From Candidatus Krumholzibacteriia bacterium (GTDB lineage: Bacteria > Krumholzibacteriota > Krumholzibacteriia > LZORAL124-64-63), in the NCBI GenBank assembly GCA_041390065.1, contig JAWKQQ010000008.1:251846-315845 (forward strand): a stretch of DNA of 64,000 nt, in the 5' to 3' direction. Below, one piece after another: positions 13,220-46,447 of the stretch. The notes beneath the pieces were generated by a model. The model had not been told where the DNA came from. It was given only the letters and a program-made list of their open reading frames with translations, and searched no databases. Made by a program: the position numbers and the translations under genes. Every line of letters begins with the position of its first letter. The first letter of the stretch is position 1.

Positions 13220-13386
13220 CGTGTTCTCCCATGTGCTGACGGGGCCGTCCCTGGAGGGCGGCCCCGGGGGTCCGTGGCATCCTGACACAATGCCTGTTCC
13301 CGGCGGCCGAGGCAAGCGCTCGCTGGACCCCGACCGGGCCCGTCTGGTACATTCGGCGCGTCCGCCCCTCGTCAGGAGCACGGCGC

Positions 13387-14811
13387 ATGAGTCCTGTCCG
13401 GCCACCCGTCCTCGCCGGGACCTGGTACCCGGCCGACCCCGAGCGGTTGCGCGCCCGGGTGCGGGAGTACCTCGCCGCGGCCGACCCCGCCCGCCGGCCG
13501 CCGGGGCGGCCGACCGTCGTGCTGTCGCCGCACGCCGGCTATCGCTATTCCGGCCCCACCGCCGGCAAGGTGCTGGGACTCCTGCGCGGCCTGGAGTTCC
13601 GGGCCGTGTTCATCCTCGCGCCCAGCCATCGGGCCCACCTCGTAAGACCCGCCCTGCCGGCCGCGACCGGGTTCGCCACTCCGCTCGGCACCGTCCCGGT
13701 GGCCGGGGAGATCGTGGCCCGCCTGGCGGCCACCGGCGACTTCACGGTCGACGAGGCCGCCCACCGCGACGAGCACGCCGTCGAGATCCAGCTGCCGCTG
13801 CTGCAGGAGGCCCTGCCGGCGGGCACGCCCATCGTGCCCATCCTGGTGCCGCCCCTCGCGCCGGAGCTGCGCCGGGCCGCCGCCCGCGCCCTCGACCCCT
13901 ACCGCGACGGCGACCACCTGCTGCTGGTGTCGAGCGACCTCACCCACTACGGTCGAGCGTACGGCTACGTTCCGTTCACCGAGCACGTCGGCGAGCGCCT
14001 CGAGGAGCTCGACACGGGCGCCCTGTTGCGTATCCTCGCCCACGACTCCGAGGGCCTGCTCCGCTACGGACAGCAGACCGGCATCACGATGTGCGGCCTG
14101 GAGGCGGCCGCCCTGGCCCTGGACAGCCGCGAGCCCGGCCCCCACCACGCCGAGCTCGTCGACTACACCCGCAGCGCCGACGGCGACGGTGACCCGGACC
14201 TTTCGGTCAGCTACGCCGGGGTGCTCATCTGCCGCGACCCGGCGATCGCCGGGCTCAGCGACGCCGATCGACGGTTCCTCCTGACCCTGGCCCGGCGTTG
14301 CCTCGAGGCCGCCGTCCGCGGCGAGCCCGCCCCCACCCCCGCCGCGCTGGCCGCGGAGCTGGGCCAGGAGCTGTCGCCGGCGCTGAACGAGCGGCGGGGC
14401 GCGTTCGTCACCCTCCGGAGCGGTGGCCTTCTCCGGGGCTGCATCGGCTACATCGAGGGCCACGCGCCCCTGGCCGAGGCCGTGGCCGCCAACGCCCGCA
14501 GCGCCGCCCTGGACGATCCCCGGTTTCCGCCCGTGCGCCCGCAGGAGCTGGCCGGTCTGCACATCGAGGTGTCCGCACTGACCCGCCTGCGGCCCGTCGC
14601 AGGACCCGAGGCCATCACGGTGGGTCGGCACGGGGTGCTGCTGGAGAAGGCCGGCCGCCGGGCGGTGTTCCTGCCCCAGGTCGCACCGGAGCTGGGCTGG
14701 GACCTGCCGACGATGCTCGGCGAGCTGGCCCTGAAGGCCGGCCTCGGCCCTGATGATTGGCGGTCCGGCTGCCGCTTCCAGGTCTTCGAGGCCGAGATCT
14801 GCGAGGAATGA
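13387..14811 (+). CDS. MEMO1-family / AMMECR1-domain fusion protein (AmmeMemoRadiSam proteins B+A)
   Basis: N-terminal MEMO1-like (PVLAGTWYPADP..SPHAGYRYSG..SSDLTHYG). C-terminal AMMECR1 (RGAFVTLRSGGLLRGCIGYIEG..PRFPPV..FLPQVAPELGW). Confidence 0.75.
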   Translation: MSPVRPPVLAGTWYPADPERLRARVREYLAAADPARRPPGRPTVVLSPHAGYRYSGPTAGKVLGLLRGLEFRAVFILAPSHRAHLVRPALPAATGFATPLGTVPVAGEIVARLAATGDFTVDEAAHRDEHAVEIQLPLLQEALPAGTPIVPILVPPLAPELRRAAARALDPYRDGDHLLLVSSDLTHYGRAYGYVPFTEHVGERLEELDTGALLRILAHDSEGLLRYGQQTGITMCGLEAAALALDSREPGPHHAELVDYTRSADGDGDPDLSVSYAGVLICRDPAIAGLSDADRRFLLTLARRCLEAAVRGEPAPTPAALAAELGQELSPALNERRGAFVTLRSGGLLRGCIGYIEGHAPLAEAVAANARSAALDDPRFPPVRPQELAGLHIEVSALTRLRPVAGPEAITVGRHGVLLEKAGRRAVFLPQVAPELGWDLPTMLGELALKAGLGPDDWRSGCRFQVFEAEICEE

Positions 14812-14837
14812 CCGGCGGCGTCCGCCAGGAAAACCTG

Positions 14838-14866
14838 TTGTTCAGTCCGAGTCACGGGACTATTCT
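14838..14866 (+). promoter_or_regulatory. putative sigma70-like promoter upstream of spt (-35 TTGTTC, 17 nt spacer, -10 TATTCT)
   Basis: Hexamers read directly from the sequence about 55 nt upstream of ATG 14923. The segment is locally AT-richer. Confidence 0.3.
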
Positions 14867-14922
14867 ATCGGCTTACCTGCCGTCGCCCCCGGCGGTCCAC
14901 CTCTGCCACGATACCGGAGATC

Positions 14923-16101
14923 ATGGGTCTTCTCGACAAGGTTCACCAGTTTCAGACGGCGCGCCAGCTCATGGCCGCCGGTCTGTACAATTACTTCCGG
15001 CCCATCGAGACCGCGCAGGAGAACACGGTCCGCTACAACGGCCGTGAAGTCATCATGCTCGGCAGCAACAACTACCTGGGCCTCACCAATCACCCCAAGG
15101 TGAAGGAGGCCGCCAAGGCGGCCCTCGACAAGTACGGCAGCGGCTGCGCCGGCTCGCGCTTCCTCAACGGCACCCTCGACGTGCACGTGCAGCTCGAGCG
15201 CAAGCTGGCCGACCTGGTGGGCAAGGAGGAGGCGCTGGTGTTCTCCACCGGCTTCTTCGCCAACCTGGGCACCATCAGCACCATGGTCGGCCGCAACGAG
15301 ACCGCGATCGTCGACCGCACCGACCACGCGTCGATCATCGACGGCTGCCGCATGAGCTTCGGAAACGTGCGCAAGTACAAGCACCAGGACATGGAACACC
15401 TCGACTACTGCCTCGAGCAGGAGCGGGACGTCAACAAGCTGGTGATCGTCGACGGCGTGTTCTCCATGGAAGGCGACGTGGCCAGGTTGCCGGAGATCGT
15501 GCCGCTGGCGAAGAAGCACGACGCCCTGGTGATGGTGGACGACGCCCACGGCGTGGGCGTGATGGGCAAGCACGGCCGCGGCACCTGCGACCACTTCGGG
15601 GTGACCGACGACGTGCACCTCATCGTGGGCACGTTCAGCAAGAGCCTGGCCTCGGTCGGCGGTTTCGTGGCCTCCGACGCCGACACCATCCACTACATCA
15701 AGCACCTGGCGCGGGTGATGATCTTCTCGGCGAGCCCCCCGCCCGCGTCGGTGGCCTCGGTGTCGGCCGCCATCGACGTCATGCTGGAAGAGGAATGGCG
15801 TCACGAGCAGCTCTGGCGCAACACGCGGATCCTCATGGAGCGCCTCCGGCAGGCCGGCTTCGACACCGGCCCGAGCGAGACCCCCATCATCCCCGTGGTG
15901 GTGGGCGGCGACGTGGAGACCTACCGCATGTGCGTCCGCTGCTGGGAAGAGGGCGTGTTCGTCAACCCGATCGTGTCGCCCGCCGTCGAGCCGGGCAACG
16001 CGCTGCTGCGGCTGTCGCTCATGGCCACCCACACCGAGGACGAGATCCACAAGGCCATGGACATCATGGTCAAGGTGGGCAAGGAAGTGGGCGTGATCTA
16101 G
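14923..16101 (+). CDS. spt: serine palmitoyltransferase (alpha-oxoamine synthase family, PLP-dependent)
   Basis: 392 aa. GTFSKSLASVGGFVAS PLP-lysine motif and ..MIFSASPPPASVASVSAAIDVM.. closely resemble bacterial SPT. Homologs with other functions in the same family (BioF, Kbl, CapB) are not fully excluded. Confidence 0.75.
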   Translation: MGLLDKVHQFQTARQLMAAGLYNYFRPIETAQENTVRYNGREVIMLGSNNYLGLTNHPKVKEAAKAALDKYGSGCAGSRFLNGTLDVHVQLERKLADLVGKEEALVFSTGFFANLGTISTMVGRNETAIVDRTDHASIIDGCRMSFGNVRKYKHQDMEHLDYCLEQERDVNKLVIVDGVFSMEGDVARLPEIVPLAKKHDALVMVDDAHGVGVMGKHGRGTCDHFGVTDDVHLIVGTFSKSLASVGGFVASDADTIHYIKHLARVMIFSASPPPASVASVSAAIDVMLEEEWRHEQLWRNTRILMERLRQAGFDTGPSETPIIPVVVGGDVETYRMCVRCWEEGVFVNPIVSPAVEPGNALLRLSLMATHTEDEIHKAMDIMVKVGKEVGVI

Positions 16102-19427: not shown

Positions 19428-19643
19428 TCAGCTGAAACCGCTGCCGCAACCGCCACCGGGCGCGCCGCAACCACCCGACGCCGTCGCCCCGGCCTGGCCA
19501 GTGGCGAACGACGACAGCGCGCGCTGGACCTTCTGGCTGCCGCAGGCCGGGCAGACCGCTTCGCCGGCCTCGAGCGCGGCGTAGGTCATGAGGTCCTCGA
19601 ACGTGTGCCGGCACTGCTGGCACTCGAACTCGAAGATGGGCAT
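19428..19643 (-). CDS. FmdB-family zinc-ribbon protein
   Basis: MPIFEFECQQCRHTFE..CPACGS with CxxC..CxxC. GGAGGG RBS. Confidence 0.7.
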   Translation of the reverse strand: MPIFEFECQQCRHTFEDLMTYAALEAGEAVCPACGSQKVQRALSSFATGQAGATASGGCGAPGGGCGSGFS

Positions 19644-19670
19644 GTCAGATCCCTCCGGAACGGCCTCCGG

Positions 19671-19808
19671 TCAGTCGGACTTGCCGACCGCCGGGGCGGG
19701 TTGGCTGGCCTTGGCGTCCACGTCGCCGGCCGCGGTCCTGGCCTCGCCATCGAGCTTGCGGGCGTCGTCCTTCGCGTGCGGGTCACCGACCTCGCAGACG
19801 TTGGCCAT
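19671..19808 (-). CDS. hypothetical small protein (45 aa)
   Basis: Manual translation MANVCEVGDPHAKDDARKLDGEARTAAGDVDAKASQPAPAVGKSD. Its ATG overlaps the stop of the upstream small ORF (TGAATG). Confidence 0.2.
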   Translation of the reverse strand: MANVCEVGDPHAKDDARKLDGEARTAAGDVDAKASQPAPAVGKSD

Positions 19809-36571: not shown

Positions 36572-36610
36572 TTGACGGGCGTCCCCGCCCCCTGGCCGCC
36601 AGCCCGTCAA
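36572..36610 (+). promoter_or_regulatory. inverted repeat (TTGACGGGC-N21-GCCCGTCAA) abutting the RBS of the downstream gene
   Basis: Perfect 9-bp inverted repeat. Its 3' arm ends at the AAGGAG Shine-Dalgarno of the 36621 ATG. Confidence 0.3.
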
Positions 36611-36620
36611 AGGAGACACC

Positions 36621-38621
36621 ATGAAGACCCGCCTCGTGCTCGCCCTCGCGCTCCTGGCCGCCGCCGCCCTGCCCGCGGTGGCCCTGGTCCCCCGGAACAT
36701 CGTCGTGGAGATGGGCTCGGCCACCTGGTGAGGCTACTGCCCGCGCGCCCGCGCCGGTCTGCAGGTCCTGCACGACCGCTACGACACCATCGAGTTCGAC
36801 TCCATCGAGTACATGGCCACCAGCGGCGGCCTGGGCTGTCCCGACTCGGACACCCGCATCACCTACTACGGCAACAACGGCCTGCCCCACCTGCTCTTCG
36901 ACGGCGGTGACCTGATCGTCGGCGCCGGCACCGACGCCGTCGACGGCAGCGTCTACGACCCCGTGGTGCAGAAGCTGCTCGACGACGCCACGCCCGTGAA
37001 GATGACGATGTCCGACGTGGTGCTCGACCCCCTGGGGTCCTCATGCACGGTGACCCTGGAGCTCACCGACGACCTCGCGAGCAGCGACGCCATCTACCTG
37101 CGGGTCGCCATCGTGGAAGACCAGGTGACCTACGCGAGCACCACCTACGAGAACATCCTGCGCGACCTGCTGCCGGACGTGCCACTGACGATCAGCGAGG
37201 CCGGCCAGACCCAGGTCGTGCCCCTGGCGTTCACCTTCAGCGGCAGCTGGGTGGCGGCCAACTCCCGGCTGGTCGCCTTCGTGCAGCGTGACGCCGACAA
37301 GCGGGTCCTGCAGACCTGCAACTCGCGCCCCACGCCCGACCATTCCCTGCGCTACTACGCCCTCGGCGAGCGCACCGTGATCGCCGGCGGCGAGGTCGTG
37401 TTCGACGAGGCCGCGCTGTTCAACACCGGCAACCTGGACGACACCTACCAGGTGACGCTCGACACGGCGGCCCTGCCCGCCGGCTGGAGCGCCCACTTCA
37501 CCCACGACGCCGGCGTCGACACCGACCTCACCCTGCCCCTGGCCGCGGGCGCCTCGGCGGCGTTCCACGTGGTCATCGACGCCGTCGGGACCGGCGAGGG
37601 CCAGGTCACCCTGACGTTCACGCCGCAGAGCGGCGGCGCCGCCCCCCGCGCCATCACCTACAAGGTCATCACCCCGGGCACCGAGATCCTGATCGTCGAC
37701 GACGACGGCGCCTATGACTACGAGACCCGCTACTTCGCGCCGGCGCTGGCGAGCACCGGCCGCAGCTTCGCCATCTGGGACCGCAACTCGACCGCCGTAT
37801 CGGCGGCCGTCCTCGACAACTTCGACGCCGTGATCTGGTCGTGCGGCTGGGCCTTCCCCACCGTGGACGCCGACGACCGCGCCGCCCTCGCCAGCTACCT
37901 CGACGGCGGCGGCAATCTGTTCATCACCGGCCAGGACATCGGCTGGGAGATGGCCGATCAGGGCGGCGCCGCGCTCGCCTGGTACCAGACCTACCTGCAT
38001 GCCACGTACGTCGCCGACGACACCAACCTGCTCACCCTCCAGGGCGTGCCGGGCGATCCCATCACCGACGGCCTCAGCCTCGCGATTTCCGGCGGCGACG
38101 GCGCCGACAACCAGGAGTACCCCAGCGACATCGACCCCCGCGGCGCGGGCGCCTCGGTGATCCTCACCTACGACGCCAGCCGCAACGGCGCCATCAAGGC
38201 CGACACCGGGCTCTACAAGGTGGTCTACCTGGCCTTCGGCTACGAGGCCATCAACAACCCGGCCGACCGCGCGGCCCTCATGGCGGGCATCGTGGACTGG
38301 CTGCTGCCCGACCCGCTGGACGCACCCGGCAACCGGGTACCCGCCGCCACGGCCGTCCTCGGCAGCGCGCCCAACCCGTTCAACCCCATGACGGTCATCC
38401 GCTACGCCGTGGCGACCGAGGCCGACGTCACGCTCGGCGTGTTCGACGTGCGCGGGCGGCTGGTGCGGCGGCTGGACCAAGGCCGACGCGCGGTCGGCGA
38501 GCACGCCGCCCGCTGGGACGGACTCGACCAGACCGGCCAGGCCCTCCCGTCGGGGACCTACGTCTGCCGGATCGTCGGGTCGGACTCCGCGCCGGCGGTC
38601 AAGCTGATGCTCGTGCGGTAG
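36621..38621 (+). CDS. candidate selenoprotein: secreted thioredoxin-fold (W-U-G-Y-C) domain fused to a large domain and T9SS type-A C-terminal domain; in-frame UGA at 36729-36731
   Basis: ATG after an AAGGAG RBS, then signal peptide MKTRLVLALALLAAAALPAVA. NIVVEMGSATW-TGA-GYCP continues in frame into ORF 36813..38621, which has no signal peptide of its own. An fdhF-like SECIS hairpin lies at 36756-36777. C-terminus PNPFNPMTVIRY..GVFDVRGRLVRRL. Confidence 0.5.
36756..36777 (+). ncRNA. putative bacterial SECIS element (mRNA hairpin)
   Basis: GGUC-UGCA-GGUCC-UGCA-c-GACC: stem with apical loop GGUCC about 35 nt 3' of the UGA. Strongly resembles the E. coli fdhF SECIS upper stem-loop GGUUGCAGGUCUGCACC. 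Confidence 0.4.
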
Positions 38622-38715: not shown

Positions 38716-40170
38716 TCACCCCGCTTCCCGCAGGTCCGCCCGCAGGCTCCGCAGCGTCACCAGCATCACCTCGTCCACCACGGCCACCCGCCCGGTCGCG
38801 GGCGCCCAGAGCACGGGCTGGCCGGTGACGCGATGGCGCCCCAGCCACGCCTCGCGCACCGACCCGTCGCCGAACCAGCCGCGGACCCGCCAGCGGGGCT
38901 CGGCAGCCAGCGGATCGACGGCGGACGTCGGCAGCAGATCGATCATGCCGAGCCGATCGAGCGTGACCTGCAGGTCGTCGATGTGGTTGGCGGTGGTCTC
39001 GGCGCCGAACGTCAGCGTCCATCCCGGCGGAACGGCGGCGTCCCAGCCGCTCTGGCGCGCCTCGAAGCGGGCCCGCGGATCGGGCGCGCGCCGCCCCCAC
39101 AGGAGCGGACGGTCGGGCTCATCGACATGCAGGCTGTCGGCGTCGGCCAGCCGGTAGCCGAGGGCGGTCAGGTCGAGGAACTCGCCGAGGAAGCCCTCGG
39201 CCGGCGCGAGCGCCTCGGCGCGGGTGATCACCAGGGCCCGCTGGCGGCGGGCCATGACCCGGTCGGCCTCCTGGAGTTCGCCGAAGGCCACCGACCAGGT
39301 GTCCGGTCCCTGGTGCAGGTCGAGCGTGCGGTAGGCGGGCAGGAGCCCGTAGTCCGCCAGGAGATCCGGCGTGGCCCCGGCGGCGGGCACGAAGCCCGTC
39401 ACCGCGGTGTCCGTGGCCCGGAACACGAGGTCGGCCAGACGACGGCGGTCGGCCTGCACCCAGGTGCCGTCGGGCTCGGCGAGGCGGCGGTCGGTGAACC
39501 GGGTGTGGTAGGCGGCGGCGAGCCCCGCGAGGTCGGCCACACCGCCCTCCAGGCGGCACCACCAGCGTCCGTCGGCGCCGCGCCGGAAGCGCCAGGAGGC
39601 GCCATCGCGGCGTCCGAGCGTGAGCGAGTCGACGTCGGCCAGGGTCAGCGGCGGCAGCAGGCGCGGCAAGCGCACGCTGTCCGGCAGACGCACGGCCACG
39701 GCGTAGAGACCGCCGCCGACGCCGAAGACGCCGCGGCGGCCCGCGCCGCTGGCGTAGATCTGGTCGGACACCGGAGCCACGTCGCCGAGGGCCAGGCGTT
39801 CACGGCCGCCGCCGGCGAGGTGGAAGATCAGCTCGATGGCGCCCTCGCCGCCGAAGCCGAAGCGGCGGGCGTCCGGCTCGGTGCCGGGCAGGACGGGGAA
39901 GGCGTCGGCCTCGACCAGGACGGCCAGGGCCGTGTCCATCCGCTCGGCGTCCACGAGGTCCTCGACCTGGCCCTCGAGGCGCCAGCCGCCCGGCTCGCGC
40001 ACCAGCACGTCCGTGCCCAGGGCCCGGCGCACCTCCAGGCGCTCCACCGCCGCCGGTTTGAAAGAGAACATGGGGCCGCCGTGCAGGCCCCGGTCCTGAT
40101 CGGCGGGAGCCGACCAGCGCCAGAGCAGCAGCCCCATGAGCAGAGCCAGGATGATCCCGGCCAGTTTCAC
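38716..40170 (-). CDS. DUF4340-like membrane-anchored protein (GldG-associated)
   Basis: GTG start with an N-terminal TM (MKLAGIILALLMGLLLW). Position immediately downstream of the GldG-like gene. Confidence 0.45.
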   Translation of the reverse strand: MKLAGIILALLMGLLLWRWSAPADQDRGLHGGPMFSFKPAAVERLEVRRALGTDVLVREPGGWRLEGQVEDLVDAERMDTALAVLVEADAFPVLPGTEPDARRFGFGGEGAIELIFHLAGGGRERLALGDVAPVSDQIYASGAGRRGVFGVGGGLYAVAVRLPDSVRLPRLLPPLTLADVDSLTLGRRDGASWRFRRGADGRWWCRLEGGVADLAGLAAAYHTRFTDRRLAEPDGTWVQADRRRLADLVFRATDTAVTGFVPAAGATPDLLADYGLLPAYRTLDLHQGPDTWSVAFGELQEADRVMARRQRALVITRAEALAPAEGFLGEFLDLTALGYRLADADSLHVDEPDRPLLWGRRAPDPRARFEARQSGWDAAVPPGWTLTFGAETTANHIDDLQVTLDRLGMIDLLPTSAVDPLAAEPRWRVRGWFGDGSVREAWLGRHRVTGQPVLWAPATGRVAVVDEVMLVTLRSLRADLREAG

Positions 40171-40189
40171 CAGGTTGGATCGCAAGGGA

Positions 40190-42358
40190 TCAGCGCCTCC
40201 ACTGACGGAACGATACGAAACCGAACCACAGGAGTCCAACCAGGGCCGGCCAGGCGAGCACCGCGACCCAGCCCAGCCACTCCTTGGTGGCATCGTCCAG
40301 CAGCAGGGGTTGGAAGCTCGCGCGTCGTCCGCGGATGCCCAGCAGGTCGTCCTCGGCCGCGATCCAGCCCACCAGGTTGAGGGCCAGGTCGCGGTTGCCG
40401 TAGAGTCCCAGGTTGGCGTTGGTGACGAACGCGCTGCTGCCGATGACGACCAGGCGACCGTCGCGAAGACCCGCCGTGGTGTCGGTCGGCGCGATCTGCA
40501 GGGCGACTCCGAACGGGCTGGGCCCGGGGCGGTCGACGGCGGGGTCGAAACCGGGCAGGCCGCTGTAGCGGAACGCGGGATCGCTGTCCGACCAGGTGTC
40601 CGGACCGGTGAAGAGCAGGGGGCTGCCCTTGACGCCCGCCAGCTCCCGCTGCCGCGACCGCAGGGTCTGCACCAGGGGGAACGTGGTGGTGACGGCCTGC
40701 AGCGGACGCACGGCCGGATGCTCGGTGTAGCCCTCGACGACGACGACGGTCCGCAGGTCGACGCCGGCGCGCGCACCGCCGCGGCTGGGCGCCATCACCA
40801 CGTCGTCGTTCTGCACGATGTTGTAGGCCTCGGTCCAGCGGCGCACAGCCGCCGGCGTGTCCGGTCCGAAGAAGCAGAGCATGGAGCCGCCGCCGTGCAG
40901 CAGCCGATCGAGCAGGGCGAGATCGGCGGCGGCCGGGTCGAGCTTGGGACCGGCCCACGCGAGCAGGCGCGCGTCCGCGGGCAGGAAGGCGCGGTCGGTC
41001 AGCACCAGCGGGCGCACGTCGTAGCCGGCGTCGTCGAGCAGGCCGGCGAGCTGGCTCGCGCCGCCGGGTTCGTCGAGATCGATGCGGGCCTCGCCGTGGC
41101 CGAGCAGCCAGTAGAGCACCGGCCGCGTGTCGGTCGCGAGGCGGTAGATCGCGCCTGCCAGCTGACCTTCGTCGGGCTCGAGCAACTGGCGCTGCCGGCC
41201 GCCGCTCATCACCACCACCGTGCGGGCCACCGCCACCTCGTGCTGGCGCACGAGATCCGGATCGACGTCCGGATCGACGATCTCGAAGCGGACGTGGGGC
41301 GAGCGGTCGGCGAACGACTGCAGCAGCGCCTGCGCCGCCTGCCGGGTGCCGTCGAGGCTCTGGTAGAACGCCAGCAGAGTGACCTCGGCCGCCTCGCCGT
41401 CGGGGCCGGCGCGGTCGAGGCTGTCGAGGATCTGCTCGGTCTGCGGGGCGAGGCTGTAGAGGCGGTCGGGGGTGAGGTCCAGGCGCAGCGGCCGGCGCAC
41501 CGCGACCGCCTGCAGGAACACCGCCACCACGGCGATCGCGAGCACCGGCGCCCACGGCCGCAGCTTGCGGCCCGGCGCGAGGCGACGCTGCTCCAGCGCG
41601 GCCGCGGCCACGGCCAGGCCCACGGCCGCCAGGCTCAGGAAGTAGAGCACGTCGCGGCTATCGAGCACGCCGCCGGCGAAGCGCAGGAAGTGGCCGCCGA
41701 GCGCCAGCTCGCCCAGCACCCGGCCCAGCGCGCCCGGGACGAACGGCTCCAGCTGCCCGACCAGGAACAGCCCCAGCGTCACCACGAACGACAGGAAGTA
41801 GGCGGCGGCCTGGTGGCTGACCAGCGCCGACGCGGCCACCCCCCAGGCGGCCACGGCCGCGCCCAGCAGGAGCAACCCCAGCAGCGAGGTGAGCAGCGGC
41901 TGCCACTGCGGCGCCACCGGCGGATCGGCCAGGCGACCCAGCACCCCGGTGAGTCCGAAGTAGAACGACGTCCCCACGAGGAGCAGCGCCACCACCACGA
42001 CCACCGAGAGCCACTTGCCGATCACCCAGCTGCGCGCGGGAACCGGCCAGCTCGCGAGCAGCTCGTAGCGGCCGCTGCGGTACTCGCTGCTCAGCAGGCG
42101 CATCGTCACCGCCGGCAGCAGGAACAGGAGGAACAGGACCACGTCGCCGTAGAGCTTGTGGAAGATGCCGGCATGCAGGTTGAGGAACACGGGCCGTCCG
42201 CTGCGCACGGTGGCCAGGCTGGTGTCGGCGTACCCGCGCACGAACAGGAAGTAGAACAGGCCGGTGAGCACCAGGAAACCGGCGGTGATCACGGGCGCCT
42301 GCGTGCTCGAGAGGAAGGCCCGGGATTCGCGGCGCAGGATGGCGAGGATCTGCCTCAT
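40190..42358 (-). CDS. ABC-2 permease fused to GldG-like auxiliary domain (GldF-GldG fusion)
   Basis: Start MRQILAILRRE overlaps the ATPase stop (ATGA). Six-TM ABC-2 permease segment, then a large GldG-like domain ending in a TM (WLGWVAVLAWPALVGLLWFGF). Confidence 0.6.
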   Translation of the reverse strand: MRQILAILRRESRAFLSSTQAPVITAGFLVLTGLFYFLFVRGYADTSLATVRSGRPVFLNLHAGIFHKLYGDVVLFLLFLLPAVTMRLLSSEYRSGRYELLASWPVPARSWVIGKWLSVVVVVALLLVGTSFYFGLTGVLGRLADPPVAPQWQPLLTSLLGLLLLGAAVAAWGVAASALVSHQAAAYFLSFVVTLGLFLVGQLEPFVPGALGRVLGELALGGHFLRFAGGVLDSRDVLYFLSLAAVGLAVAAAALEQRRLAPGRKLRPWAPVLAIAVVAVFLQAVAVRRPLRLDLTPDRLYSLAPQTEQILDSLDRAGPDGEAAEVTLLAFYQSLDGTRQAAQALLQSFADRSPHVRFEIVDPDVDPDLVRQHEVAVARTVVVMSGGRQRQLLEPDEGQLAGAIYRLATDTRPVLYWLLGHGEARIDLDEPGGASQLAGLLDDAGYDVRPLVLTDRAFLPADARLLAWAGPKLDPAAADLALLDRLLHGGGSMLCFFGPDTPAAVRRWTEAYNIVQNDDVVMAPSRGGARAGVDLRTVVVVEGYTEHPAVRPLQAVTTTFPLVQTLRSRQRELAGVKGSPLLFTGPDTWSDSDPAFRYSGLPGFDPAVDRPGPSPFGVALQIAPTDTTAGLRDGRLVVIGSSAFVTNANLGLYGNRDLALNLVGWIAAEDDLLGIRGRRASFQPLLLDDATKEWLGWVAVLAWPALVGLLWFGFVSFRQWRR

Positions 42359-43326
42359 GCGTCGTCCCCCTCGGTCGGCGGCGATGACGCCGCCGGATCC
42401 GGCGCGGGCGGCACGCCGGTCAGGCGCAGGAAGAGATCCTCGAGCGTCGGGCCGCGCTCCTCGAGGCCCTGCAGGCGGCCGCCGGCGCGGAGCACCGACT
42501 CCACGAGCTGCGGCTTGATCTCCACGGCGTTGCCGGCGATGACGACCTCGGCGCCGCACGCGGTCGCGGTGACGGCGTCCCGGCCGACGACCGCGGCCAG
42601 GGCTTCGACCACGGCCGCGCGGTCGCCCTCCCAGCTCAGGTGCACGGTGCTCGCGCCACCGCTTGCACCCTGGAGAGAGGCGCCGCTCTCCTCGGCCACG
42701 ACGCGGCCATGGTCGAGGATGATGATGCGGTCGCACACCTGAGCCACCTCGGCCAGGATGTGGCTGGACAGGAGCACGGTCTTCTCGCCGCGGAACTCGC
42801 GCACCAGCTGGCGGATCTCCACGATCTGGTGCGGATCGAGCCCCGCGGTGGGCTCGTCGAGGATCAGCACCGGCGGGTCGCCCACCAGGGCCTGGGCCAG
42901 GCCGACGCGCTGCCGGAAGCCCTTGGAGAGCTGGCCCACCGGGCGGGCGGCCACCTCGCCGAGGTGGCAGCGGGCGATGATCCGATCGAGCTGGGCGCGG
43001 CGGACGGCGCGCGGCACGCCCTTGAGGTCGGCCACGAACTCGAGCAGTTCGCACACGGCGGTGTCGGGGTAGAGCGGCGTGTTTTCGGGCATGAAGCCCA
43101 CCTGACGACGGGCGGCCAGCGGATCGGCCACCACGTCGCGCCCCCCCACGCGCACCTCTCCGTGGCCGGGCGCGAGGCTGCCGGTGAGGATCTTCATGCA
43201 GGTCGACTTGCCCGCGCCGTTGGGCCCCAGGAAGCCGGCCACCTCGCCCTCGGCGACTCGGAAGCTCACGTCGTCGAGGGCGAGGACCTTGCCGAAGCGG
43301 CGGCGGAGATGACGGACCTCGATCAC
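42355..43326 (-). CDS. ABC transporter ATP-binding protein (GldA-like)
   Basis: Walker A GPNGAGKST, signature LSKGFRQRV, Walker B ILDEPTAGLD. Confidence 0.85.
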   Translation of the reverse strand: MIEVRHLRRRFGKVLALDDVSFRVAEGEVAGFLGPNGAGKSTCMKILTGSLAPGHGEVRVGGRDVVADPLAARRQVGFMPENTPLYPDTAVCELLEFVADLKGVPRAVRRAQLDRIIARCHLGEVAARPVGQLSKGFRQRVGLAQALVGDPPVLILDEPTAGLDPHQIVEIRQLVREFRGEKTVLLSSHILAEVAQVCDRIIILDHGRVVAEESGASLQGASGGASTVHLSWEGDRAAVVEALAAVVGRDAVTATACGAEVVIAGNAVEIKPQLVESVLRAGGRLQGLEERGPTLEDLFLRLTGVPPAPDPAASSPPTEGDDA

Positions 43327-43351
43327 TGGCGCCTCCCGAGGGAACCGCGGA

Positions 43352-44362
<1,011 letters not shown>

Positions 44363-44537: not shown

Positions 44538-46343
44538 TCAGGGGGCGAGCGTGACCTTGCCCGTGATGGCGGCGCCCTCGGCCGTCGTGATCCGGTAGAG
44601 GTACACGCCGCCCGGCGCCCGCAGGCCCCGGTCGTCCCGTCCGGGCCACACGAGCGTGTTCGGGCCGGCCGCGATCGGACCAGCGGGTGTCTGCCAGATC
44701 CGCCGGCCCCGCAGGTCGTACACGGTCGCCCGGCCGACCGTGGCGGCGGACGACGTGAACTGCAGGGCGACCTGCGGGTTGCCCGGGTTCGGCCGCGGCC
44801 CGAGGTCGGTCAACCCGGCGGCTGCGGTCGTCGGTTCGACCGCCAGCGCCGTCATGGTCTCCTTGATGTGGTCGACGTTGATGTGACCGTCGACCGCGGC
44901 GTCGACGATGGCGACGTAGACCTCGCGGCCGTCGTACGGCACGAGGTCCCACCAGCGCTCGGTCATGGTCGTCTGCCCGTCGCCGGATTCACGGTAGATC
45001 ATGGTGTCCGTCGCGGCGTCCATGAGCGCCACGTAGCAGTGTTCGGGGTCGTCGGTGCCGCCGACCCGCAGGCTCATGCTGAGGCCCGTGATGACGAACG
45101 GATGGCTCCGCAGCGAGCCCGTGGCCGCCTCGCCGAGCATCTGGCCCGGCTGGCCGCGGCCGGACAGCGGCCCCTGGAAGTACTCCGCGGAGCCGAAGTA
45201 GCACGTGCCGACCAGACCCACGCTCTCCTCGCCGCGGCGCTTCGGGTTGTCGCCGAAGGTGGGATTGCCGAGCACGCTGTTGCCCGTGAACGCGGCGAAC
45301 TCACGCGCCAACGGCGGCGTCCGGTGCACCGTGGGCGCGGCCAGTCCCTCGCCGAACCGCAGGGTGTCGGTCCGGACCACGAACGCCAGCTGGCCCAGAT
45401 GAGGCTCGCTGAAGGGCGCGATGCGCGAGAGCAGCCACGACTGCCCGCCGTCGAAGCTGTCGACCTCGGGCGCGAGGCCCTGGTCGATGATGGTGCGGGC
45501 GGCGAAGCTCCAGGCGCCGGGCTCGTTCGCCGCCAGGTGGCTGATGCCCGAGGTCCCGTACTCGTGGAACAGGAGGTGATGCACTCCCTGCCGGACGATG
45601 TACTGGCTGCTCTCCAGGGACGCGGTCGGGGTGGCGCTGCCGTTGAGCAGGAAGACCTCCGGGTCGGTCCAGGCATGCACGGTGATCGCGGTCGCCATCG
45701 CCAGCGCGGCGCGTCCGCCCGGCAGATCGTTCGTCCGCACGGTGGTCAGCATGTGCCACTGCCCGTCCTCGACGTAGAGATACGGGTCGCGGCACTCGCT
45801 CCACTGACCATCCGGATCGTAGAAGAACTCCGGCGGGGCCGGCTCCTGCACCGGGTTCAGCGGCGACTTCGACCAGTTCACCAGATCGGTCGAGTAGGCC
45901 GTGCAGATGCGCTGGTTGGAGGCGTCATCCACGCCGGTGTAAGCCATCCACCAGAGGTGGGTGCCGGCATCGTAGACCACGTCCGGCGCCCACAGGGCCC
46001 GCGACTCGTAGGGCGCCGAGGACACCGCGAGCACCTGGACAGGCGGCGACCAGTGGATCAGGTCTCCGCTCGTGCTGTACCAGATGTGGTCCGACGATCC
46101 GGGATAGGGGTCGTCCATCGGGATGGCCCCGTAGTAGAGGACGTACAGCGTGTTCCACTTCACGAGGCAGAAGTCCCAGACCTGCCAATCGGGATGCACG
46201 TAGTACGGTTGCTCGAAGTCGATGACATGGAGCGCGTGGGCCCCGACGGCCGGCAGACCGAGCAACGCGAGCACGAGCAGGCCGCGCGCCACGGCCGGCA
46301 GGCCGAGGCGCGAGGTCGTGCGGGCGAGGACGCCGAGGGTCAT
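44538..46343 (-). CDS. secreted GH32-like five-bladed beta-propeller protein with T9SS type-A CTD (paralog 1)
   Basis: Signal peptide. PYYVHPDWQVWDFC..LYVLYYG..HIWYSTSGDLIHWS parallels the GH32 N-terminal blocks, but WMNDPNG is replaced by WQVWDFC. RDP is present in SECRDPYLY. C-terminus PNPGNP..VYDLRGRRIW..GVYLYRI. Confidence 0.5.
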   Translation of the reverse strand: MTLGVLARTTSRLGLPAVARGLLVLALLGLPAVGAHALHVIDFEQPYYVHPDWQVWDFCLVKWNTLYVLYYGAIPMDDPYPGSSDHIWYSTSGDLIHWSPPVQVLAVSSAPYESRALWAPDVVYDAGTHLWWMAYTGVDDASNQRICTAYSTDLVNWSKSPLNPVQEPAPPEFFYDPDGQWSECRDPYLYVEDGQWHMLTTVRTNDLPGGRAALAMATAITVHAWTDPEVFLLNGSATPTASLESSQYIVRQGVHHLLFHEYGTSGISHLAANEPGAWSFAARTIIDQGLAPEVDSFDGGQSWLLSRIAPFSEPHLGQLAFVVRTDTLRFGEGLAAPTVHRTPPLAREFAAFTGNSVLGNPTFGDNPKRRGEESVGLVGTCYFGSAEYFQGPLSGRGQPGQMLGEAATGSLRSHPFVITGLSMSLRVGGTDDPEHCYVALMDAATDTMIYRESGDGQTTMTERWWDLVPYDGREVYVAIVDAAVDGHINVDHIKETMTALAVEPTTAAAGLTDLGPRPNPGNPQVALQFTSSAATVGRATVYDLRGRRIWQTPAGPIAAGPNTLVWPGRDDRGLRAPGGVYLYRITTAEGAAITGKVTLAP

Positions 46344-46447
46344 GTCGGGGCGGCCTCCAGATGGAGGAGAGAATGCACCCTATCGGGGGTGCTTTCGGAG
46401 GATTCTATACGATTTCGTTCTGCGCGTGTGGCGATATCGTGATTTCA

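Follow-up and report, generated by a model that had tools for sequence, protein, structure and literature searches.

Gene structure and reading frame

The window (the whole 64-kb stretch of DNA that was analysed) contains a long reading frame on the + strand that is interrupted by a single TGA codon. Its features, from the ribosome-binding site to the terminator, are collected in Table 1. Codons 1-36 encode MKTRLVLALALLAAAALPAVA|LVPRNIVVEMGSATW, of which MKTRLVLALALLAAAALPAVA is the predicted signal peptide, and the peptide that follows the TGA at 36729-36731 reads GYCPRARAGLQVLHDRY. Around the TGA, with U standing for selenocysteine (Sec), translation gives NIVVEMGSATW-U-GYCP-RARAGLQVLHDRY. 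The signal peptide lacks a lipobox Cys. An N-terminal helix is seen at residues 2-15, with low pLDDT, in the modelled Cys ortholog described below, and tblastn alignments in related genomes reach back to residues 1-5. The AAGGAG, the ATG at 36621 and the signal peptide of the earlier note are confirmed, and the TGA does follow 36 codons with an open frame beyond it; the 630 downstream codons that it counted are 629 sense codons and then a TAG.

Table 1. Features of the locus, in window coordinates. Residue numbers (aa) refer to the 666-residue protein.
Feature	Position	Strand	Basis or remarks
Shine-Dalgarno AAGGAG	36610-36615	+	read from sequence; 5 nt upstream of ATG 36621
Complete CDS, predicted selenoprotein	36621-38621	+	translation; 666 codons including Sec37
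Predicted Sec-type signal peptide, aa 1-21	36621-36683	+	sequence; cleavage after A-V-A placed by eye
Predicted thioredoxin-fold module, aa ~24-122	36690-36986	+	beta-alpha-beta-alpha-beta-beta-alpha
Redox motif W36-U37-G38-Y39-C40-P41	36726-36743	+	aligns with W-C-x-Y-C-P in all full-length homologs; between beta1 and the N-terminus of alpha1 (ortholog model)
UGA, predicted selenocysteine codon (Sec37)	36729-36731	+	TGA at 30 and TGC/TGT at 18 orthologous sites elsewhere
Hairpin H1 (GCGC-GCCC-GCGC)	36743-36754	+	RNAfold; +15 to +26 from the U of UGA
SECIS-like hairpin H2, CGGUCUGCAG-GUC-CUGCA(C)GACCG	36755-36778	+	RNAfold; agrees with all four published bSECIS criteria
Predicted Omp28-type beta-sandwich, aa ~125-235	36993-37325	+	packed on the thioredoxin module (model); Pfam Omp28 81-234; NF045500 26-232
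Predicted Ig-like beta-sandwich, aa ~243-350	37347-37670	+	model; Foldseek: transglutaminase C-terminal barrels, RbmA
Predicted class-I glutamine-amidotransferase/ThuA/GIFT-like alpha/beta domain, aa ~355-562	37683-38306	+	conserved Cys/His absent
FlgD-Ig/T9SS-type sorting-domain-like beta-sandwich, aa ~581-666	38361-38618	+	ends KLMLVR; PF13860
Terminator TAG	38619-38621	+	translation

Because long spurious open reading frames are common at the 70% G+C of the window, both strands of the 64 kb were scanned for interior TGA codons, with 40 stop-free codons and coding-type GC3 required on each side. The scan returned four matches. Only the TGA at 36729, which has a GC3 of 0.95 both upstream and downstream, is a genuine interior codon; the other three mark the edges of genes or fall in antisense frames. 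The genes of the window themselves end in TGA more often than in any other stop codon, indicating that the genetic code is standard.

Domain architecture and predicted structure

Structure was predicted with AlphaFold for P0017, the closest full-length Cys ortholog (56% identical), using a 106-sequence alignment. The model has a pLDDT of 90.3, with the thioredoxin module above 90. In P0017 this module consists of the following elements: beta 28-34, CxxC 38-41, alpha 41-54, beta 60-66, alpha 75-83, beta 91-94, beta 97-101, and alpha 114-121. The topology is that of the canonical thioredoxin fold, with the CxxC at the alpha1 N-cap. Pro89 of the window protein (36885-36887) is invariant in 26 of 26 sequences and directly precedes beta3, and the family profile matches the thioredoxin-fold structures 1fo5 and 1nho. 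The best structural match of the P0017 model is HBP35 of Porphyromonas gingivalis (PDB 5y1a), aligned over 204 residues. The thioredoxin-like layout that had been proposed from the sequence is thus borne out by the position of the motif in the ortholog model and by this match.

What the earlier note had called a large unknown domain comprises three parts: an Omp28-type beta-sandwich, then an Ig-like sandwich, and finally a domain resembling class-I glutamine amidotransferases (GATase1) and ThuA. This last domain (residues 355-562) has the class-I glutamine amidotransferase fold and carries the conserved motifs VDDDG, GGxLFITGQDIGW, DDTN, GGDGANNQ, and FGYEAI; an exhaustive search found it to recur in very large multidomain proteins. 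No Cys or His within residues 355-562 is invariant or near-invariant in the homolog alignment, and a catalytic amidotransferase role was rejected on this ground. The domain differs in the same way from its structural relatives, the ThuA-like, class-I GATase and GldG-IFT52 'GIFT' domains (2gk3, 4jqs, 3rht, 5fms), in lacking the conserved nucleophilic Cys and the catalytic His.

A disordered linker precedes the C-terminal beta-sandwich in the P0017 model. The tail of the window protein matched FlgD_ig (PF13860) at 43.7 bits, above the cut-off of 27, and scored below the cut-offs of the T9SS models (PF18962, 13.2 vs. 27; TIGR04183, 16.6 vs. 23). TIGR04183 was passed by several orthologs and paralogs: P0017 (23.6), L066 (28.4), L076 (27.4), and L075 (34.5). 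The family profile also matches the C-terminal domains of PorU and PG93. The T9SS C-terminal domain claimed for this protein therefore holds at the level of the family, while the window copy itself falls short of the T9SS cut-offs. A Sec-type signal peptide and a C-terminal beta-sandwich are both present, the former from sequence and the latter from the ortholog model. The same tail occurs on two other window proteins, and acidobacterial orthologs are without it.

Relationship to known families

In a profile search of the kind suggested by the earlier note, the best NCBIfam match was a UxxC family, NF045500 ('Omp28-related selenoprotein'; E = 2.7e-13), with residues 26-232 aligned to model positions 40-263. 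The score was 50.0 bits against a curated cut-off of 200. Seven orthologs and paralogs scored 36.8-71.1 bits on the same model, all below the cut-off. A 2026 review, in which outer-membrane selenoproteins also appear, equates NF045500 with 'Hypothetical protein GOS_C' and gives its motif as UxxC (PMC13188914). GOS_C was described from 74 Sec sequences in ocean metagenomes and assigned a thioredoxin-like fold (Zhang and Gladyshev, 2008; PMC2398784).

The window protein shares with NF045500/GOS_C an Omp28-type thioredoxin-like N-terminal module, a UxxC motif with Sec at the first position, Cys-form homologs, and a SECIS element just downstream of the UGA. It differs in length and content, having 666 residues with additional Ig-like and GATase1/ThuA-like domains compared to the 377 positions of the NF045500 model. 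The sources differ as well: GOS_C came from GOS marine reads, whereas the window family comes from non-marine metagenome-assembled genomes (MAGs) of Krumholzibacteria, Eisenbacteria, and Acidobacteriota. A score of 50 bits against a cut-off of 200, with relatives at no more than 71.1 bits, indicates at the sequence level that the family of the window protein is related to GOS_C/NF045500 but separate from it. The protein is accordingly less unusual than had been supposed, as Omp28-related UxxC selenoproteins with a thioredoxin-like fold (GOS_C/NF045500) have been known since 2008.

HBP35 resembles the window protein in its thioredoxin module and attached beta-sandwich, which are structurally homologous, and it is itself a T9SS-secreted CxxC thioredoxin located at the cell surface. 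It has Cys in place of Sec, a sequence identity of 14-16%, and neither the Ig-like nor the GATase1-like domain. HBP35 binds haem, while the window protein carries no sign of haem binding. The CxxC-dependent disulfide-reductase activity of HBP35 has been proven (PMC2907840).

Similarity to the Omp28 lipoproteins (PF11551; NF033782) is weak in sequence, extends over residues 23-234 and falls below both cut-offs (PF11551, 27.7 vs. 34.9; NF033782, 17.7 vs. 150). In contrast to these lipoproteins, the window protein has no lipobox Cys and carries an SPase-I-type signal peptide. The Cys-form orthologs appear at NCBI under the name 'Omp28-related outer membrane protein'. The proposed range of the family of the window protein takes in Krumholzibacteriota, Eisenbacteria and Cloacimonadota-like lineages, with tail-less forms in Acidobacteriota.

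The UGA codon among homologs

The database search found 212 homologs. Among the 120 matches listed, 99 cover no more than 94% of the query (most are ~616 aa) and 21 span the whole query (662-676 aa); the N-terminus is missing from ~80% of those listed. The short homologs that were aligned begin at a Met just past the Cys/Sec site. An exhaustive search yielded 923 representative clusters (E <= 1e-30), and in several of the listed matches the alignment begins two residues after the Cys/Sec position, with homolog residue 2 opposite query residue 40. P0003 is one truncated gene call, made at a locus (L001) whose DNA carries TGA. In every full-length homolog aligned, the residue facing the UGA is Cys, within the motif A-T-W-C-x-Y-C-P.

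For 79 related loci in species-representative genomes of GTDB, the codon was read directly from the DNA. The orthologous codon was TGA at 30 sites and TGC or TGT at 18 sites in other genomes, making the window the 31st TGA. The TGA sites occur in genomes labelled Krumholzibacteriia, Eisenbacteria/Eiseniibacteriota, Thermoanaerobaculia, Holophagae, and Acidobacteriota. The consensus of the site is E-x-G-x-A-T-W-[U/C]-x-Y-C-P and the flanking peptide is kept on both sides. Residues 1-64 are conserved at the protein level across phyla, Cys forms included. On a rough neighbor-joining tree, Sec forms do not separate from Cys forms but are intermixed with them, implying several Sec/Cys switches. The placement of Sec at the first Cys position, as first read from the window, agrees both with the Cys of the full-length homologs and with the TGA kept at the 30 sites.

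A sequencing or assembly error in a TGC Cys codon, or a recent mutation of such a codon that left a pseudogene, would also produce the TGA. One base separates TGA from TGC, Cys-form orthologs with TGC/TGT exist, and the source is a MAG. An error or a recent mutation would not account for TGA at the same codon at 30 sites in genomes that were assembled independently, with full-length open frames and conserved flanks, for the GC3 of 0.95 on either side, or for a SECIS-type hairpin that co-occurs specifically with TGA (see below). This explanation has a negligible probability and is effectively refuted by the 30 orthologous TGA sites with conserved peptide on both sides.

The same conservation bears on the possibility that the TGA is a true stop. 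The gene would then be the 602-aa ORF from the ATG at 36813, exactly as NCBI annotates it (P0001; 100% match, Candidatus Krumholzibacteriia MAG), and the 36 upstream codons a small ORF or leader; HBP35, which also yields internally initiated cytoplasmic isoforms (PMC2907840), offers some support for such an internal start. No Shine-Dalgarno sequence precedes 36813, and this ATG falls within strand beta2 of the predicted thioredoxin fold, leaving a product without beta1, the active site and alpha1. That product would also have no signal peptide yet would end in a secretion-type tail, and residues 1-64 are plainly part of the protein in the Cys forms. The earlier note had made the related point that the signal peptide lies only upstream of the UGA, which stands, with the further result that the downstream ORF starts inside the fold. 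We consider a true stop very unlikely. Taken together, the TGA conserved at 30 sites and the peptide kept on both sides rule out the sequencing-error, pseudogene and two-gene readings.

Hairpins downstream of the UGA codon

Folding of the RNA downstream of the UGA, a check proposed in the earlier note, gave two hairpins. Bacterial SECIS (bSECIS) elements are defined by a loop of 3-9 nt, an upper stem of at least 4 bp, a G in the first two loop positions, and a distance of 16-37 nt from the UGA, with an energy cut-off of <= -7.5 kcal/mol (PMC13188914). The apical loop of H2, GUC, lies at 36765-36767, 33 nt from the UGA. H2 has 10 bp with one bulge and an energy of -12.9 kcal/mol, ranking at 0.04 against synonymous recodings. 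It is presumably similar to the E. coli fdhF minihelix.

The bSECIS geometry was present in 30 of 31 Sec genes (mean -7.65 kcal/mol), 15 of them at <= -7.5 kcal/mol. Eleven of the 18 Cys orthologs had no bSECIS hairpin and one of the 18 passed the energy cut-off. The difference between Sec and Cys genes was pronounced (Mann-Whitney p = 3.6e-7, the sequences being related to one another). H2 thus agrees with the bSECIS definition, and such hairpins separate Sec from Cys genes.

The hairpins differ among clades: the Krumholzibacteria and Thermoanaerobaculia forms have loops of the GGUC type, and the Eisenbacteria form has GCUUC-CGGGAUU-GAAGC. When pairs were counted on the clade hairpins, 100% and 86.8% of cells were paired, compared to 25-44% with the partners slid, in a test whose sequences are related and whose structures were derived from the same sequences. 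For H1, 97.9% of cells were paired over 12 orthologs, with two pairs altered on both sides. Two-sided pair changes include a U-A to C-G exchange made by two synonymous substitutions. The upper stem of the hairpin slips by one position between relatives.

Two broader tests were negative. Total MFE of the region from +4 to +60 did not differ from that of synonymous recodings (mean z -0.08 for Sec and +0.07 for Cys genes, p = 0.28), a comparison made uninformative by the 70% GC, and the 16 codons that follow the UGA had no higher silent-site identity than the rest of the gene. Rfam contained no matching model at gathering thresholds or at permissive E-values.

Genomic context and proposed decoding of the UGA

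The neighbours of the gene encode an M23 peptidase, an FG-GAP protein with the same tail, a DUF4340 protein, a GldA/F/G-like ABC transporter, and FabH. No neighbour gene was conserved across 41 loci, and none suggests a redox partner. Clade-restricted neighbours were Nuo subunits, QueF, an epimerase, and DUF6599. None of the T9SS core genes (SprA, PorU/V, GldKLMN) was seen in the 64-kb window. Literature searches found nothing linking Omp28 to selenoproteins, nothing on selenocysteine in Krumholzibacteriota and nothing on type IX secretion in Krumholzibacter.

Neither selA, selB, nor selD was found in the 64-kb window, which is part of a ~317-kb contig, or in the 79 related loci. The 30 window ORFs gave no Pfam match to SelA, SelB, or SelD, ARAGORN detected no tRNA-Sec in the window or the 79 loci, and a tblastn search with an approximate E. 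coli SelD query, a weak negative, had no match. This absence of Sec machinery, along with the negative total-MFE and silent-site tests, would be expected if the UGA were decoded as something other than Sec, either by near-cognate read-through inserting Trp or Cys or through a reassigned UGA. Reassignment is ruled out by TGA being the usual terminator in the window, where no other gene has an interior TGA. Non-Sec decoding in general is opposed by the aligned residue, which is the catalytic Cys of a CxxC and the classic Sec position; by the hairpin of bSECIS geometry, which is specific to UGA forms and has compensatory changes; and by the nearest curated family, which is a UxxC selenoprotein. 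Decoding as a residue other than Sec is therefore unlikely.

On these comparisons the locus is very probably a single gene (36621-38621) whose product is an exported selenoprotein of 666 residues, with the UGA at 36729 decoded as Sec. The argument of the earlier note that the gene makes sense only with a decoded UGA gains support from the conserved UGA/Cys pair, the UGA-specific hairpin, the fold, and the signal peptide. From the sequence of the locus and its relatives we infer that the host lineage has the capacity to decode Sec.

Proposed function

Translation would start at the ATG at 36621. Sequence and comparison suggest that H2, acting as a bacterial SECIS, would recruit SelB and Sec-tRNA(Sec) at the UGA, with Sec inserted at position 37. 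The signal peptide would guide the chain through the Sec translocon and be cleaved by SPase I, and the mature N-terminus would lead into the thioredoxin module with its predicted active site, U37-G-Y-C40. There the selenol would be the exposed attacking position and Cys40 the resolving residue, the two possibly forming a reversible selenenylsulfide. Since the thioredoxin module and beta-sandwich are homologous to those of the disulfide reductase HBP35, the most likely activity would be extracytoplasmic thiol/disulfide or selenol-based oxidoreduction. The Ig-like sandwich and the non-catalytic GATase1/ThuA/GIFT-like domain probably serve in binding or scaffolding, and the C-terminal FlgD-Ig/T9SS-type domain probably directs outer-membrane crossing and surface attachment.

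An extracytoplasmic oxidoreductase function, argued by analogy with HBP35, is a plausible assignment in which our confidence is about evenly divided. Export specifically via the T9SS, suggested by the tail sequences of the family, is held with somewhat less certainty. With confidence that is likewise balanced, we propose that the window protein may be the founding example of an unannotated, mostly Sec-using family of T9SS-type surface proteins in several little-studied phyla, which would combine an HBP35-like Sec thioredoxin with a non-catalytic GATase1/GIFT-like domain and be distinct from GOS_C.

Implications

Omp28-related UxxC selenoproteins with a thioredoxin-like fold are already known. 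New here are a distinct multidomain family, the dominance of its Sec form, its occurrence in phyla without a selenium literature, and its systematic truncation in annotation. Most public database entries of the family are truncated, since gene callers take the Sec codon for a stop, and the active site, the signal peptide, and hence the cellular location are missing from their annotation. With this family, phyla without published selenium biology gain a Sec-dominant selenoprotein, and a Sec-decoding trait is implied in these uncultured lineages. In its clade-specific SECIS hairpins, which lie within the coding sequence of helix alpha1, protein and RNA structure would be evolving in the same nucleotides.

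The protein would be a natural Sec counterpart of HBP35-type secreted thioredoxins and a means to study two questions: why extracytoplasmic redox reactions favour selenium, and which reductant serves such enzymes outside the cell. If the proposed reading is true, these bacteria would have a selenium-dependent oxidoreductase outside the cytoplasm, possibly at the cell surface, a place with no known conventional reductant.

UGA-containing paralogs and hairpins

Two family paralogs with UGA codons were found on a single short contig of a Thermoanaerobaculales MAG (L052), and a CUCG-GGUCU-CGAG hairpin was common to both. More distant paralogs carried UGA at the first motif position. The contexts among these seven sites were G-U-PGCP, U-PSCP, T-U-PYCP, T-U-SFCP, and W-U-GGC. 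One distant paralog was short (426 aa); it lacked the alpha/beta domain, but its T9SS tail scored strongly, at 34.5 bits. The cut-off (200 bits) of NF045500, the NCBIfam model for the Omp28-related selenoprotein, was reached by none of the distant UGA paralogs scored. The window's selenoprotein gene has a further hairpin, H1, which follows the UGA and precedes the SECIS-like one; the Krumholzibacteria clade conserves it through compensatory changes (GCGG/CCGC vs. GAGG/CCUC).

Coordinates of the window features and related loci (L-numbers, fetched from GTDB species genomes)
Feature	Location	Strand	Detail
UGA paralogs	L052 1342; 3197		
Distant paralogs, UGA	L065 3106; L066 2875; L067 2881; L076 3097; L075 651; L070 7697; L073 7647		
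Orthologs without C-terminal sorting-type tail	L048 308-2047; L054 2716-4755		Thermoanaerobaculia/Acidobacteriota
Hairpin H1	window 36743-36754	+	GCGC-GCCC-GCGC
FG-GAP-repeat protein	window 32910-~35000	-	FlgD-Ig/T9SS-type C-terminal domain
GH32-like protein	window 44538-46379	-	FlgD-Ig/T9SS-type C-terminal domain
DUF4340, fused ABC-2 permease with GldG-like ABC_transp_aux/DUF4350, ABC ATPase	window 38716-43536	-	Convergent with selenoprotein gene
Small ORF	window 19600-19673	-	Start reads MPIFEFECQQCRHTFE
Memo-AMMECR1 fusion, then in-frame class I/II aminotransferase	window 13240-16101	+	TGA 14809-14811; ATG 14923

Other window genes

The TGA that ends the Memo-AMMECR1 fusion was not flagged in the window's coding-signal scan for interior in-frame TGA; the fusion and the aminotransferase therefore appear to be two separate genes. 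Judged by eye from its motif, the small ORF appears to encode a zinc-ribbon protein of the FmdB family, with Cys (CxxC) at the motif. The GOS paper (PMC2398784, Table 4) counts Sec-containing members of that family among its selenoproteins.

C-terminal tail and GATase1/GIFT-like domain

The FlgD-Ig/T9SS-type C-terminal domain of the selenoprotein was also present in the FG-GAP-repeat and GH32-like proteins, giving three putative cargo proteins in the 64 kb, the selenoprotein included. The tail fits a lineage-specific export signal, because the tail-less orthologs nonetheless retained the Sec-thioredoxin module (motifs T-U-GYCP and G-U-PHCP) and the GATase1-like domain.

The DUF4340/ABC cluster, which runs towards the selenoprotein gene, encodes a gliding-type transporter like GldA/F/G, and its GldG-type domain and selenoprotein residues 355-562 belong to a common, broad GIFT/GATase1-like fold class. 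The GATase1/GIFT-like domain (query residues ~350-565) recurred in very large proteins of 1000-4800 aa at 30-45% identity, as well as in ~460-aa proteins without the thioredoxin module (database homologs P0123, P0128, P0139, P0189, P0261, and others). Because it occurs in both of these settings, the domain looks like a mobile surface-protein module.
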